DNA of 32,000 nucleotides, from contig NZ_SMZY01000001.1 in the NCBI RefSeq assembly GCF_004358755.1, positions 1,206,796 through 1,238,795 of the forward strand. Reading direction: 5' to 3'. The notes beneath the pieces are model-generated. The model was not told where the DNA came from, ran no database searches, and worked only from the letters and a program-made list of their open reading frames with translations. Of the stretch, positions 4,431 to 24,501 are shown in pieces. Origin of the DNA: Peribacillus frigoritolerans (GTDB lineage: Bacteria; Bacillota; Bacilli; Bacillales; Bacillaceae). Each line of letters begins with the position of its first letter. Within the stretch, counting starts at the first letter, position 1. Position numbers and translations under genes: made by a program.

Positions 4431-4710
4431 GCGTAAAAATTAGCTAATTACATAGGATTCTATGAAAATTGGATGAATGAATCACTTCATCTAACCATAC
4501 GAAAAAAATATTTCTTAATAAGATAGTATAAGGGATCAGTCACAGATTACATGATTCTTTCTTTGCAAGATTTGAATGAGATATCCGGCAGCTATGTGCA
4601 GCGATCGTGATACGTTTGTCTGATAGATCAAGACGTCTTCTTGCAGGGTTGGATTTATTATCTAATGATGACTGCACCTTTAGTATGGATTGATGAAAGA
4701 GGTGAAAAAT

Positions 4711-5253
4711 ATGTGCCAGAAACATGTTGAAGTTCGTTTAATCTGCAAGCGTGTTAAACATTCGGGCGAACACTGTCCATGTGACCATTGCAAAAAACAC
4801 GAAGAAAAATGGATCTGTAAATGCGTCAAAGTTTGTGATGAGTGGAAGAAAGAAGAAAAGCACCATTGCGGATGTGATCACTGGAAAAAAGAAGAAAAGC
4901 ACCATTGCGAGTGTGGTTGCTGGAAACAAGAAGAAAAGCATCATTGCAGGTGTGAGTACTGGAAAAAAGAAGAAAAGTACCATTGCGAGTGTGATCACTG
5001 TAAGAAAGAAGAAAAGAATCATTGCAGGTGTGACGATTGGAAAAAAGAAGAGAAGCACCATTGCGAGTGTGATCACTGTAAGAAAGAAGAAAAGCACCAT
5101 TGCATGTGTGATAAGTGCAAGAAAAAAGAGAAGCACCATTGTAAGTGTGATAAATGCAAGAAGAAAGAGAAACACCATTGTAAATGTGATAAATGCAAGA
5201 AAAAAGAGAAACATCACTGCAAATGTGACAAATGCAAAAAGAAGCATAACTAA
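4711..5253 (+). CDS. Cys/His/Lys/Glu tandem-repeat protein (about 180 aa; 13-aa HHCxCD-type repeats); candidate metal-binding or disulfide-crosslinked spore surface protein
   Basis: The track ORF starts at TTG 4690, but ATG 4711 has AAGAGGTG 6 nt upstream. The protein is essentially CDxW/CKKEEKHHCx repeated 10.7 times. No Ser or Thr occurs in the repeats. Confidence 0.7.
   Translation: MCQKHVEVRLICKRVKHSGEHCPCDHCKKHEEKWICKCVKVCDEWKKEEKHHCGCDHWKKEEKHHCECGCWKQEEKHHCRCEYWKKEEKYHCECDHCKKEEKNHCRCDDWKKEEKHHCECDHCKKEEKHHCMCDKCKKKEKHHCKCDKCKKKEKHHCKCDKCKKKEKHHCKCDKCKKKHN
4834..5253 (+). repeat. In-frame 39-nt tandem repeat, 10 full copies plus one truncated copy
   Basis: Units begin with TGTGA at 4834, 4873, 4912, 4951, 4990, 5029, 5068, 5107, 5146, 5185 and 5224, an exact 39-nt spacing read from the sequence. 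Confidence 0.95.
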
Positions 5254-5333
5254 AACTAATGACAATTTAATCGCTAAGCTGCTTATTACGAATTGGGTGC
5301 AGCTTGTTTGACCTTTAACTTGCGATATTTTTT

Positions 5334-8684: not shown

Positions 8685-8709
8685 AACTATGATTTAAATT
8701 ATCATAGTT
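8685..8709. promoter_or_regulatory. Perfect 9-bp inverted repeat, operator-like
   Basis: AACTATGAT-TTAAATT-ATCATAGTT. Related half-sites recur at 8952-8972 and, inverted, at 9096-9113. Confidence 0.3.
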
Positions 8710-9146
8710 AAAAAAATTGTCCCCAGACGAAATCTAAGAAGAACCTGCGATTTTATCTTTCCTGAAAAAGAAACAAAATGTCTAAAGACTTAAATGAAAA
8801 TCAAAAATTTATCTATGGGGCAGGGACTGATCTGCTGAGCAGAAGTTTCGGCTTCAAGCTTAATGGTGAATCCCGGCAGAATGATGCAAAACCTCCAGAC
8901 ACATTAAACTTCCTTTGTCCAGAATGCTCAAATAGAATTAAAAATTAATAAAACTATGTTCTAAATAATCATTTATAAACCTATTTCACTCAGACCACAT
9001 TCCAAATATCCCTCAATAATGATACCTCTAAAAGTTTACAAAGGGGCAAAAGACTCATTTTTCAACGTAAAGCAGGTATTTTTCTAAAAACATTGAATTA
9101 TTAGAACATAATGCAACCAAAATATCTTCAGGAGGAGATGTTTCGA

Positions 9147-9515
9147 ATGGGTGAGAAAAGAAGTGCGAGCGGATTTTTATTAAAACAGAGAGCTTTTCTT
9201 AAACTCTATATGATCCGAATGACGGAACAGGATAAGCTGTATGGGTTAAAGCTGCTGGATGTGCTCCGTGATGAATTCAGAAGATATGGATACAGACCAA
9301 ATCATTCAGAAGTATATAAATCGCTGCATGAATTGATAGAAGACGGAGTATTGAAGCAGGTTAAAAGAAAGAAAGAGGGAATGAAGCTGCAGGAGGTCGT
9401 TTATTACAAGTTCGAGGATTATGAAAAAGCAAAGCTATATAAAAAACAGCTGAAGGCAGAGCTTGATCGGTGTCAAAAACTGCTGGATAAAGCTCTGCAG
9501 GATAATTATTCATAA
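9147..9515 (+). CDS. PadR-like winged-helix transcriptional regulator
   Basis: LYGLKLLDVLRDEF...YRPNHSEVYKSLHELIEDGVLKQVKRKKEGMKLQEVVYYKF matches the PadR wHTH pattern, followed by a coiled C-terminal helix. The start is uncertain: ATG 9147 lies 10 nt after AGGAGGA, and the track gives ATG 9111. Confidence 0.65.
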   Translation: MGEKRSASGFLLKQRAFLKLYMIRMTEQDKLYGLKLLDVLRDEFRRYGYRPNHSEVYKSLHELIEDGVLKQVKRKKEGMKLQEVVYYKFEDYEKAKLYKKQLKAELDRCQKLLDKALQDNYS

Positions 9516-9627: not shown

Positions 9628-10236
9628 ATGCTGCAAAAAACAATTAAAGCATATATTGAAAATCAAATAAATCATCAACCGCAAAATCAATCTATTGGCA
9701 TTTACAAACAAGAGAAAGAATATGCTGAGGCGCATGGACTTGTTCCTGAACAAATTAAACTAGTGGAAGAGAAAGCACAGTCTAGATTCAAAGATGCTTA
9801 TCTGGAGCGAGTTGATAAAGAAACAGAAGAATTGATTTCAGCTGAAAACCCATCTGAGTTTCTTCAGGAAAAAGTAAATTTCTTAAAAGCGAATCAAAAA
9901 GAGTTTGTTTATTTAGAATCTGATTGGTTTGACATTATTAAAATAGACGGCTTAACAATAGAGCATGATGACGTTTTTGGCACATATAAAGGACTGCTCG
10001 GTTTAAAACAGAAAAAGGCCGCCGGCAGCAGCATCCGAAATTGGTTTAATGAAAAGGCTGATGGAGAGACAACAAAATACCAGCTGCTTTTTAATGATAA
10101 AGACGGCTTATGGGATGTTAATTTTGATTGTGACCTCATTGAGGGTTTTCATGAAGATTTAACCTTGAACGAAGCATTTGAAAAGATCTATAGTTTTCTC
10201 TTTGAACTAGTGAAAGATTTGGAGAGCACTGTCTAA
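9628..10236 (+). CDS. Hypothetical soluble protein (202 aa)
   Basis: ACAGGAGG lies 7 nt upstream. The ORF is clean and has its own terminator. No motif recognised. Confidence 0.6.
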   Translation: MLQKTIKAYIENQINHQPQNQSIGIYKQEKEYAEAHGLVPEQIKLVEEKAQSRFKDAYLERVDKETEELISAENPSEFLQEKVNFLKANQKEFVYLESDWFDIIKIDGLTIEHDDVFGTYKGLLGLKQKKAAGSSIRNWFNEKADGETTKYQLLFNDKDGLWDVNFDCDLIEGFHEDLTLNEAFEKIYSFLFELVKDLESTV

Positions 10237-10250
10237 TAAGTATTTTATGA

Positions 10251-10280
10251 AGCCTGCAGAAATGCAGGTTTTTATTTTTA
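10251..10280 (+). terminator. Rho-independent terminator
   Basis: CCTGCA-GAAA-TGCAGG followed by TTTTTATTTTT. Confidence 0.75.
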
Positions 10281-10304
10281 GATTGAGGCGGGGTTGAAAG
10301 GGGG

Positions 10305-10790
10305 ACGAGGGTCTATGTTTCCTCTTTTTCCGGATTTGAACCGTATTGTGGAATCATACGGGGCCTATGTTTCCTCTTTTTCCAGATTTGAACCGTATTG
10401 TGGAATCATACGGGTCTATGTTTCCTCTTTTCCCGGATTTGAACTGTATTGTGGAATCATACGGGGTCTATGTTTCCTCTTTTTCCGGATTTGAATTGTA
10501 TTGTGGAATCATACGGGTCTATGTTTCCTCTTTTCCCGGATTTGAACCGTATTGTGGAATCATACGGGGCCTATGTTTCCTCTTTTTCCAGATTTGAACC
10601 GTATTGTGGAATCAAACAGGGTCTATGTTTCCTCTTTTTCCGGATTTGAATTGTATTGTGGAATCATACGGGTCTATGTTTCCTCTTTTTCCAGATTTGA
10701 ACTGTATTGTGGAATCAAACAGGGTCTATGTTTCTTCTTTTTCTGATTTTGCTCGATATTGTGGAATCATACAGCCCCTATGATTCCCAG
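10305..10790 (+). repeat. Spacer-less tandem array of a non-coding unit alternating 51 and 52 bp, nine full copies plus a degenerate tenth
   Basis: The anchor CTATG occurs at 10313, 10365, 10416, 10468, 10519, 10571, 10623, 10674, 10726 and 10778. Consensus unit: GGGTCTATGTTTCCTCTTTTTCCGGATTTGAACCGTATTGTGGAATCATAC(G). Each unit contains the inverted repeat CCGTAT-N9-ATACGG. Confidence 0.95.
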
Positions 10791-10816
10791 ATTCATAAAT
10801 TTAAAAATGGGCGTTC

Positions 10817-10843
10817 ACCCTTACTCATTTTGAACATATGTTA
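10817..10843 (+). promoter_or_regulatory. SigK-type promoter candidate upstream of the P-loop ATPase gene
   Basis: AC (10817-10818), 16-nt spacer, CATATGTTA (10835-10843), lying 27 nt before ATG 10870. Short motif match only. Confidence 0.3.
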
Positions 10844-10869
10844 GAAGAAAAGAGTGAGAGGATGATTGG

Positions 10870-11937
10870 ATGAGCGGAAAAGCTCTTCATTATTTTGCCG
10901 GAGGGAATACGGCTAAAGGTTATTTCAGCCTGTATGATTCTGCATTTAAGAATTTATCACGTGTGTTCATGCTTAAGGGCGGGTCAAGAGCCTATAAATC
11001 AGAATACATGAAATTGATTAGTGAATCATTCCTTGCAGCCGGACATTCTATTGAGTATTTACACTGTCCATCTAACAATGAGTGGCTCGACGGGTTCATT
11101 ATTCCAAGTGCCGGAACAGGAATCATAGATGATGCTGTGCCGGATATTCGCAGCCACATCCCGATAGAAAACCTTGAAGTGATTGTCATGAATAATGACA
11201 TGAAGCATCAATCTGCATATCATGATGCAATCGGACAGCTCACAGCTGACATTTCTTTTAAATTTCAGCAGGCATACGAAACGTTCGCAGCTTCGCTGAA
11301 AGCACATGATGACATTGAAGATATATATATAGCAAATATGGATTTTACTAAAGCGAATCAGTTATCAGCTGATCTTATCGACCTTTTCTATGGAGAAGAG
11401 AAGGCCGGCAAACCTTCTGTTGTTAACCACCGCTTCCTGGGCGCAGCTACACCTGATGGAGCAGTAGACTTTATTCAAAACTTAACAGAAGATATCGAAA
11501 AGCGGTATTTTATTAAAGGGAGAGCTGGGTCAGGCAAGTCCACGATGCTGAAGAAAATTGCAGCCGCCGGTGAAGAAAGTGGATATGATGTGGAAGTCTA
11601 TCATTGCGGATTTGATCCAAACAGCCTCGACATGGTCATACTGCGGGAATTAGGCATTGCGATTTTTGACAGTACGGCACCACATGAATATGATCCCGAT
11701 CGTCCAACGGATGAAATAATCGATATGTACGAAAAATGCATAACGGCTGGAACAGATGAAAGATTCGAGCCTGAAATTCAGAGAACAACTGAAGCTTATA
11801 AAGATAAAATGAAAGAAGCTATTTCTTATTTGGCAGAAGCAAAAGGGATGATGGATCAGCTGGAGGAGTTGAAAGGCGAAATGCCATCTTCATATTCAGT
11901 TGATTTATACAAAATAATCACAGAAGAATTAAATTAG
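10870..11937 (+). CDS. P-loop NTPase, PRK06851-like family (uncharacterised)
   Basis: N-terminus HYFAGGNTAKGYFSLYDS and Walker A GRAGSGKST at about residue 218. It also carries FDSTAPHEYDP. The family name is from memory. GAGAGGA lies 7 nt upstream. Confidence 0.75.
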   Translation: MSGKALHYFAGGNTAKGYFSLYDSAFKNLSRVFMLKGGSRAYKSEYMKLISESFLAAGHSIEYLHCPSNNEWLDGFIIPSAGTGIIDDAVPDIRSHIPIENLEVIVMNNDMKHQSAYHDAIGQLTADISFKFQQAYETFAASLKAHDDIEDIYIANMDFTKANQLSADLIDLFYGEEKAGKPSVVNHRFLGAATPDGAVDFIQNLTEDIEKRYFIKGRAGSGKSTMLKKIAAAGEESGYDVEVYHCGFDPNSLDMVILRELGIAIFDSTAPHEYDPDRPTDEIIDMYEKCITAGTDERFEPEIQRTTEAYKDKMKEAISYLAEAKGMMDQLEELKGEMPSSYSVDLYKIITEELN

Positions 11938-24210: not shown

Positions 24211-24232
24211 GAACAAAAAAATATGATTCTTT

Positions 24233-24501
24233 AAAAGTGCCTGAAAAATATCAGGATAATAGGGAAACCGGTTAAAATCCGGTGCAGCCCCCGCTACTGT
24301 AAGCGCAGATTCCATTGAGATGCCACTGACTTTTTAAGTTGGGAAGGTTCAATAGAAAATGAAGCGTGAAGCCAGGAGACCTGCTTTTAAAGATTGATTG
24401 CTTGTTTTTCGGTGGGAAAAATAAGTCAGGTATCCTTAGTGTGTAAGAATTTGCTTATTAAAGGCCTTGACTGACTTCCTATTCAGTTCAAGGTCTTTTT
24501 T
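24233..24501 (+). promoter_or_regulatory. Cobalamin (AdoCbl) riboswitch with a terminator expression platform
   Basis: The conserved core is read directly: AGGGAAACCGGTTAAAATCCGGTGCAGCCCCCGCTACTGT ... GCCACTG ... GGGAAGG ... AGCCAGGAGACCTGC. A hairpin (24463-24495) plus T6 follows, immediately upstream of cobO. Confidence 0.9.

Follow-up and report, generated by a model that had tools for sequence, protein, structure and literature searches.

A variable tandem array downstream of rtp

The DNA analysed here is a 32,000-nucleotide stretch of contig NZ_SMZY01000001.1 (NCBI RefSeq assembly GCF_004358755.1, catalogued as Peribacillus frigoritolerans; positions 1,206,796 to 1,238,795 of the forward strand), which we call the window and number from its first letter, and the element under study is a tandem array of 51/52-bp units lying downstream of rtp, the gene for the replication terminator protein (RTP). 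We consider it likely that the array is a lineage-specific, single-locus, near-neutral minisatellite, i.e., a variable-number tandem repeat (VNTR), of Metabacillus idriensis and its closest relatives, and comparison of the sequences suggests that it most likely has no sequence-specific function. The array, the palindrome at its unit junctions and its two flanks are as follows.

10308..10793, plus strand: minisatellite of nine 51/52-bp head-to-tail units and a decayed tenth, delimited by Tandem Repeats Finder, anchors and a hidden Markov model (HMM) of the unit
10350..10374, no strand assigned: junction palindrome (one example), GGAATCATA, a 7-nt spacer and TATGtTTCC, recurring every 51/52 bp
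10249..10282, plus strand: intrinsic-terminator-like hairpin with a T run, GAAGCCTGCAG-AAAT-GCAGGTTTT, from a terminator scan
10805..10869, plus strand: promoter and 5′-leader block of the downstream nucleoside triphosphatase (NTPase) gene, near-invariant across lineages, forming the right flank

Tandem Repeats Finder placed the array at 10309-10772 with a period of 52, 9.0 copies, 90% matches and a score of 722, and it also returned higher-order periods of 103 and 155 bp that scored as high as period 52. The unit HMM gave the limits 10308-10793 and matched nowhere else in the window. The core TATTGTGGAATCA occurred nine times at zero mismatches, every time within the array, and at up to two mismatches it gave 10 matches against 1.75 expected, a number reached in 0 of 100 shuffles. 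An original prediction, made by a model from the sequence alone, had set the anchor CTATG at 10313, 10365, 10416, 10468, 10519, 10571, 10623, 10674, 10726 and 10778; all ten positions were confirmed, as were the spacings of 52, 51, 52, 51, 52, 52, 51, 52 and 52. It had also described the units as alternating between 51 and 52 bp, and here the lengths were correct but the strict alternation was not, as the two lengths form a mixture. In the CTATG register the nine units span 10313-10777, the decayed partial tenth begins at 10778, and the consensus unit reads CTATGTTTCCTCTTTTTCCGGATTTGAACCGTATTGTGGAATCATACGGG(G)T. Neighbouring units abut head-to-tail, nothing unique separates them and the repetition covers the full 52 bp, which agrees with the earlier statement that this is not an array of clustered regularly interspaced short palindromic repeats (CRISPR).

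The difference between 51 and 52 bp is located in a G run within the spacer of the junction palindrome. This inverted repeat, TATGwTTCC / GGAAwCATA, dominates the predicted folds of single units, is a stronger symmetry than the CCGTAT/ATACGG hairpin on which the original prediction had concentrated, and, in strains having units of the form CTATGATTCC, becomes a perfect 9+9 palindrome. Its arms (GGAATCAwA / TATGwTTCC) are the least variable part of the unit. Among the consensus units of the different lineages, 2 of 18 arm columns and 11 of the 34 remaining columns varied, which is not a significant difference (p = 0.18); when a change in any unit was counted, the figures were 8 of 18 and 29 of 34 (p = 0.0035), a test in which the units are not independent of each other.

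The placement of the array between a terminator and a P-loop ATPase gene (10870-11937), as originally proposed, was confirmed. The terminator-like hairpin (10249-10272) ends the apparent operon formed by rtp and a gene for a 202-aa protein, and this conserved left flank was present in every lineage, with or without the array. On the right, the array ends ~15 bp upstream of the promoter block. Because the array lies upstream of the whole of this block (10805-10869), a change in copy number leaves the core promoter and leader of the NTPase gene unaltered. This position, together with the existence of related lineages that lack the array, spoke against the earlier suggestion of a spacer that tunes the downstream gene.

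Copy number and probable unit exchange among strains

For comparison, the rtp locus was fetched from other assemblies (labelled L001-L030), ten of which, besides the window, carry the array at this locus; these assemblies are mostly short-read, and some of the copy numbers below may have collapsed. At the same locus and between conserved flanks, the window has 9 units, L002 has 11, L003 and the type strain DSM 19097 (L027) have 6, L004, L005, L006/L028 and L030 have 4, and L008 has 3. The intergenic lengths accordingly differ among strains in multiples of ~52 bp, while the array-bearing strains all encode an identical RTP and have the same terminator and promoter block on either side of the array. 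A Logan short-read contig (L029) starts inside the array (L029 1-100), and because it breaks there, copy numbers from draft genomes need to be read with caution. The original prediction had stated that copy number varying freely among near-identical strains, with no effect on the expression of neighbouring genes, would tell against it; the sequence half of this was found, since L003 (6 units) and L004 (4 units) are 99.7-100% identical in their flanks.

The same pair of strains contains a hybrid unit. Unit 3 of L004 joins the 5′ part of L003 unit 4 to the 3′ part of L003 unit 5, and this looks like the footprint expected of a unit-length unequal exchange. Within the window, the unit variants that had been listed earlier were present in their mosaic distribution, with CTGTAT in units 3 and 8, TTGTAT in units 4 and 7, AAACAG in units 6 and 8, CCAG in units 2, 6 and 8 and CCCGG in units 3 and 5, and the earlier explanation of this mosaic by unequal crossover or gene conversion was upheld. 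Across strains, the terminal unit is orthologous in all array carriers and the edge units are more diverged than the interior ones, which are homogenised within each strain and bear strain-specific signatures such as GAACCGTATTGTGG versus GATCTGyTTTGAGG. Homogenised interiors bounded by orthologous edges amount to concerted evolution. By our own reading, the lineage consensus units differ by ~17-19% between the most distant array-bearing strains, and the DNA of the NTPase gene differs by 14% between the window and L006; because the divergence of the units is about that of the neighbouring gene, there is no sign of extra constraint on them.

These observations fit a history in which a stretch of ~150 bp would have entered the dispensable DNA that separates the rtp operon's terminator from the promoter of the gene after it. 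The array would have a single origin in the ancestor from which the M. idriensis clade descends, with a 52-bp unit being amplified afterwards. With a terminator on one side and a promoter on the other, DNA at this site may vary freely. Whole units would then have been gained and lost by replication slippage (slipped-strand mispairing) and/or by unequal recombination between units, with the interior units becoming homogenised over time. The 9-10-bp inverted repeat carried by every unit may favour the slippage. As a near-neutral minisatellite, the array would offer a ready-made, highly polymorphic marker for typing M. idriensis isolates. It is also a site of breaks or collapse in short-read assemblies, and it cleanly illustrates how a bacterial minisatellite evolves in concert.

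Several points weigh against such a neutral history. The lower variability of the palindrome arms in comparison to the rest of the unit hints at constraint on the arms, the array has been retained in two species-level clusters of GTDB, and some of the differences in copy number could have come from collapse of the repeats during short-read assembly.

Distribution and lineages without the array

A scan of 185,579 species genomes by exact match to a 27-nt degenerate pattern of the unit, which could miss diverged solo copies, found only this locus, in two genomes labelled Metabacillus idriensis. The pattern had no match in viral contigs or metagenome contigs, BLASTN of three units against plasmids and phages returned nothing, and the unit HMM, run over the window and the fetched loci, matched only inside the arrays. 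An origin as a mobile element was rejected on the lack of similarity to plasmids, phages or viral contigs. The original prediction had also named a dispersed element of the repetitive extragenic palindromic (REP) or miniature inverted-repeat transposable element (MITE) type as an outcome that would speak against it; only one locus per genome was matched. Its statement that the unit belongs to no known repeat family was upheld, and a full-text literature search by species name brought up no description of such a locus for Metabacillus among the matches listed.

The array is absent from sister lineages. In L001, L007, L009 and L010, whose RTP protein is identical to that of the window, an unrelated insert of ~170 bp occupies the position of the array (~5130-5300), and in L021-L026, with 96% RTP identity, there is neither array nor insert and the terminator abuts the promoter block. 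No other tandem array was found near rtp in the other Metabacillus lineages or in the Priestia and B. subtilis loci examined.

The gap between this terminator and promoter appears to be an insertion hot spot.

The rtp/Ter context and a test for RTP sites

The array lies near rtp and Ter-like sites, and the features of this context are the following.

9147..9515, plus strand: rtp, replication terminator protein gene (Pfam PF02334 RTP, E = 3.6e-55)
9628..10236, plus strand: gene for a 202-aa protein, from the open reading frame (ORF) list, apparently co-operonic with rtp; its terminator precedes the array
8944..8974, plus strand: Ter-like RTP site, ATTAATAAAACTATGTTCTAAATAATC..., upstream of rtp, by match to the Ter consensus

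The rtp product is 122 aa long when read from the ATG at 9147 and is 100% identical to a database protein named replication termination protein / MULTISPECIES Bacillaceae. In three complete related chromosomes, rtp sits at 49.6-50.4% of the length, which places the window within the Ter/rtp region of a chromosome like that of Metabacillus idriensis, a species formerly named Bacillus idriensis and not a Bacillus in the strict sense. The GC skew of the plus strand is positive over most of the window without a clear sign switch at rtp, and the best match in the window to the B. subtilis dif site had 10 mismatches in 28 positions; with neither a skew switch at rtp nor a dif-like site, the point where forks meet and dif itself are probably outside the window. 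A dif/Xer site had been considered as an identity for the array, given that its CATA-N6/7-TATG junction resembles the inner arms of dif, and was discarded because the spacing is wrong and because of the same best match of 10/28 mismatches.

Although the RTP protein of the window is 100% identical to that of L001, L007, L009 and L010 (4001-4369), the rtp DNA of these lineages differs at 62-63 of 369 positions, and the genes neighbouring rtp are only 65-77% identical to those of the window. Because all of the 62-63 differences are synonymous, almost all of them at third codon positions, RTP appears to be under extreme purifying selection.

Ter-like sites were sought with the B. subtilis Ter consensus, which was validated on the B. 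subtilis rtp locus, where it matched TerI with 0 mismatches and the inverted TerII with 1, both upstream of rtp. At up to three mismatches, the only match in the window was at 8944-8970 (0 expected by chance), and its core AAACTATGTTCTAAATAATCA is kept upstream of rtp in most of the lineages examined, two of them having a one-base variant. A perfect 21-bp dyad, CTATGATTTAAATTATCATAG, is found at 8687-8707, and an inverted site lies over the rtp promoter at ~9094-9114 on the minus strand, so that the layout of Ter-like sites upstream of rtp mirrors that of TerI/TerII in B. subtilis. In that species rtp is autoregulated through a Ter site located within the promoter region (PMC10331603).

By sequence, the full Ter-like site, the dyad and the inverted promoter site make up a complete rtp/Ter-like module outside the B. 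subtilis group, and this context is the more useful by-product of the analysis. With the array 0.8 kb from rtp and 1.2-1.6 kb from the Ter-like sites, the question arises whether fork arrest close to Ter sites promotes repeat instability.

The same proximity raises the idea that the array itself consists of RTP-binding sites, forming either a multi-copy Ter-like fork barrier or a decoy that titrates RTP. Each unit begins with CTATGTT, which is exactly the core of the B-site AAACTATGTTCTAAATAATCA for RTP at this locus, and at its 3′ end carries a second, inverted copy of the half-site-like motif TATGwTT. Only that heptamer is shared, however: the units mismatch the clade's 21-bp B-site at 12 of 21 positions, and no unit was among the sites of the window with up to seven mismatches to it, a level at which ~17 random sites are expected. 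At up to three mismatches, the full Ter consensus is matched only upstream of rtp, outside the array. The two half-site-like motifs of a unit are 37 bp apart or divergent and compose no 21-bp dyad like that at 8687-8707 or those of B. subtilis TerI/TerII, and a 7-mer shared with some part of a 21-bp site would be expected by chance in an estimated ~8% of random 52-bp units. Moreover, lineages that carry the array and lineages that lack it have 100% identical RTP, and because of this identity there is no co-evolution of RTP with the array. We therefore regard a role as an RTP-binding array as very improbable, and Ter or RTP sites as the identity of the array were rejected on the mismatch counts and the architecture of the sites.

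Phased palindromes as possible protein-binding sites

A different protein-binding explanation starts from the palindrome. In it, operator-like sites of the form GGAATCATA-N7-TATGwTTCC, placed every 51/52 bp or ~5 helical turns, would be bound by a dimeric protein on one face of the helix, and the resulting nucleoprotein array would regulate the NTPase promoter or organise the DNA of the terminus, with the number of units setting the strength. We judge this unlikely. It draws on the inverted repeat being the strongest symmetry in the unit, on the palindrome arms showing the highest conservation of all columns, including in the old and diverged units at the ends, and on the array ending so close to the conserved promoter block. 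It is opposed by the pattern of change in the palindrome, where complementarity holds in 86% of cells, covariation is absent and a central mismatch (T·T or A·A) is seen in half of the units, by lineages that have the same flanking genes and the same promoter block and lack the array, and by a unit number that ranges from 3 to 11 among strains without visible compensating change. The contrast between arms and remaining columns across lineages was, as given above, not significant, and no candidate binding protein was found for the palindrome.

In a narrower version, the palindrome phased every 52 bp would bind a dimeric protein and the array would act as a copy-number 'rheostat' beside rtp, modulating the adjacent, probably sporulation-linked, NTPase promoter or affecting fork progression or recombination near the terminus; to this we assign a slightly smaller chance again. 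RTP in a non-canonical half-site mode is a conceivable binder. If a protein-binding reading of either kind were true, it would give new insight into the biology of the terminus or into the regulation of the uncharacterised dual-wield NTPase family.

By-eye comparison, which can give leads only, with the binding motifs of GerE, SpoIIID, Spo0A, CodY, Noc (NBS), AbrB and SinR, with parS and with the LexA box suggested none that fits within the unit, and for all of these the candidate positions vary between strains. The same was the case for the DnaA box TGTGGATAA, with which the sequence TGTGGAATC agrees at 6 of 9 positions.

RNA and coding readings

The leading idea of the original prediction was that the array is transcribed into tandem structured RNA modules, based on a hairpin in each unit.

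10341..10361, plus strand: CCGTAT-TGTGGAATC-ATACGG hairpin (one example), from pair counts over 37 units of 7 strains

This 6-bp hairpin can be drawn in most units, with 80.5% of the cells in these 37 units being paired. Double (compensatory) changes occur at two of the pairs, where C-G has become U-A and A-U has become U-A, 11 cells being affected. In addition, folding of the whole region on the minus strand was somewhat more favourable than that of shuffles (z = -2.3, 20 shuffles). On the other hand, two of the six hairpin pairs are broken in 12-13 of the 35 distinct units, and the weak covariation of the hairpin was equalled in 7-14 of 500 shuffles, within the range obtained from unconstrained related sequences, which is the known false-positive range of the test. 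The hairpin is not the minimum-energy fold of the unit, and it overlaps the junction palindrome, so that both cannot form at once. Folding of the plus strand was no better than that of shuffles, either for the array (z = +0.55) or for single units (+0.49 and +0.28). The loop TGTGGAATC, which had been called invariant, reads TGAGGAATC, TGCGGAATC or TTTGGAATC in other strains, and the sister lineages lack the array altogether.

Transcription signals were likewise lacking. Consensus scans of 10240-10870 found no sigma-70-like promoter on either strand, and the array has a terminator directly upstream and the next promoter block downstream. The Rfam search that had been proposed gave nothing over the array at gathering thresholds in the whole window, and, for the region at E up to 10, only chance-level matches far below the cutoffs. 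With no promoter, no Rfam match and unexceptional plus-strand folding, the RNA-module explanation was not sustained, and we see very little prospect for it. A tRNA-like reading was also tried, as the minus strand holds GGTTCAAATCC, and was dropped when ARAGORN found no tRNA or tmRNA.

Coding was considered on both strands, as plus-strand ORFs of 45-83 aa or as a 14-codon mini-ORF on the minus strand. The latter recurs in every unit over 10313-10777 (ATG ATT CCA ... ACA TAG, peptide MIPQYGSNPEKEET), and this recurrence is the reason why ORF scans show the region as open. Its frame from ATG to TAG is self-contained within each unit, and because the 51/52 change falls in the spacer, the frame is undisturbed by it; codon 3 varies only synonymously (CCA, CCT, CCG). 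Most of the other differences are non-synonymous, however, including Y/N/S/I/T at codon 5, G/S/N/R at codon 6 and P/L/S at codon 9. In many units the frame begins with TTG, a Shine-Dalgarno-like GAGG is 14 nt from the start, and unit 4 of L003 has a 1-nt deletion inside the frame. The plus-strand ORFs have TTG starts, no ribosome-binding site and a change of frame at each 52-bp unit, in accordance with the original conclusion that the array is unlikely to be coding, and the absence of the whole array in sister lineages speaks against a coding role as well. The substitution pattern, the frame changes, the TTG starts and the internal frameshift led us to reject coding on either strand, the chance of which we take to be virtually nil.

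Comparison with known repeat systems

Set beside known systems, the array has the tested properties of a VNTR and lacks those of Ter sites, CRISPR, iterons, REP/MITE elements, Rfam RNAs and coding repeats. Bacterial VNTR or minisatellite loci, e.g., the vrr loci of B. anthracis, are used for typing by multiple-locus VNTR analysis. The array resembles such loci in having spacer-less head-to-tail units at a single locus with conserved flanks, whole-unit copy differences between close strains, hybrid units and higher-order periods of the kind left by unequal exchange, and edge units more diverged than the interior. It differs from them in a fairly long unit (52 bp), in the 9-10-bp inverted repeat that each unit contains, and in its location, within the Ter/rtp region and immediately before a conserved promoter.

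The likeness to the RTP/Ter system consists of the rtp neighbourhood, the Ter-like sites upstream arranged as B. subtilis TerI/TerII, and the heptamer CTATGTT, whereas the 12/21 mismatches to the local B-site, the missing 21-bp dyad and a tandem instead of dispersed arrangement separate the units from Ter sites. Plasmid iterons are similar in being direct, equally spaced repeats in non-coding DNA, and the array could in principle bind a protein as they do; iterons, however, are ~17-22 bp long and stand beside a rep gene and an AT-rich origin, whereas the array units are 52 bp long and chromosomal with no rep gene nearby. The iteron-like role offered by the original prediction fell for these reasons, there being no adjacent replication gene, units of 52 bp and a variable loop. 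REP elements and bacterial interspersed mosaic elements (BIME), BOX elements and bcr-type MITEs also have short non-coding units with an internal inverted repeat, but these are scattered in many copies and the array unit is confined to one locus. CRISPR arrays share regularly spaced direct repeats with partial dyad symmetry, from which the array differs by the lack of unique spacers, a total period of 52 bp and no leader or cas context in the window.

Flanking genes and other features of the window

The gene preceding the array encodes the 202-aa protein, for which no Pfam or NCBIfam match was found, and every Metabacillus-type locus has a gene of 199-203 aa after rtp. Downstream of the array is the following gene.

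10870..11937, plus strand: PRK06851-family ('dual-wield') P-loop NTPase gene, by NCBIfam PRK06851.1-1

Its original description as PRK06851-like proved apt, with a match to NCBIfam PRK06851.1-1 (E = 4.7e-118, below the equivalog cutoff) and homologues named PRK06851 family protein. An exact-sequence look-up of the window's NTPase gave no match, so the strain of the window is absent from the collection searched. The promoter block in front of it is composed of AAATGGGCGTTC (10805-10816), AC (10817-10818), a 16-nt spacer and CATATGTTA (10835-10843), the last lying within the palindrome AACATATGTT (10833-10842), and is followed by the ribosome-binding site GAGAGG (10856-10861); it hardly varies across lineages that have only 65-80% identity in their coding DNA. 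The block resembles putative sigma-K -10/-35 elements with a GerE box, and GAACATATGTTA within it also resembles a LexA box. The PRK06851 'dual-wield' NTPase family has been described, with a suggested relation to sporulation (bioRxiv 10.1101/2023.02.19.529160). If the sigma-K/GerE resemblance is true, it would fit this suggested sporulation link of the family.

Elsewhere in the window, a coding tandem repeat of 39 bp (13 aa) in ~10 copies occupies 4834-5244 within a plus-strand ORF at 4690-5253, and L002 holds the same 39-bp coding repeat. The product of this ORF is rich in Cys, His, Lys and Glu, with motifs such as CDHWKKEEKHHCE and CDKCKKKEKHHCK, and somewhat resembles modular, CotG-like proteins of the spore coat. 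At 24218-24402 on the plus strand there is a cobalamin riboswitch (Rfam RF00174, 131 bits, E = 5.3e-33), upstream of a run of plus-strand ORFs from 24533 to ~31070.

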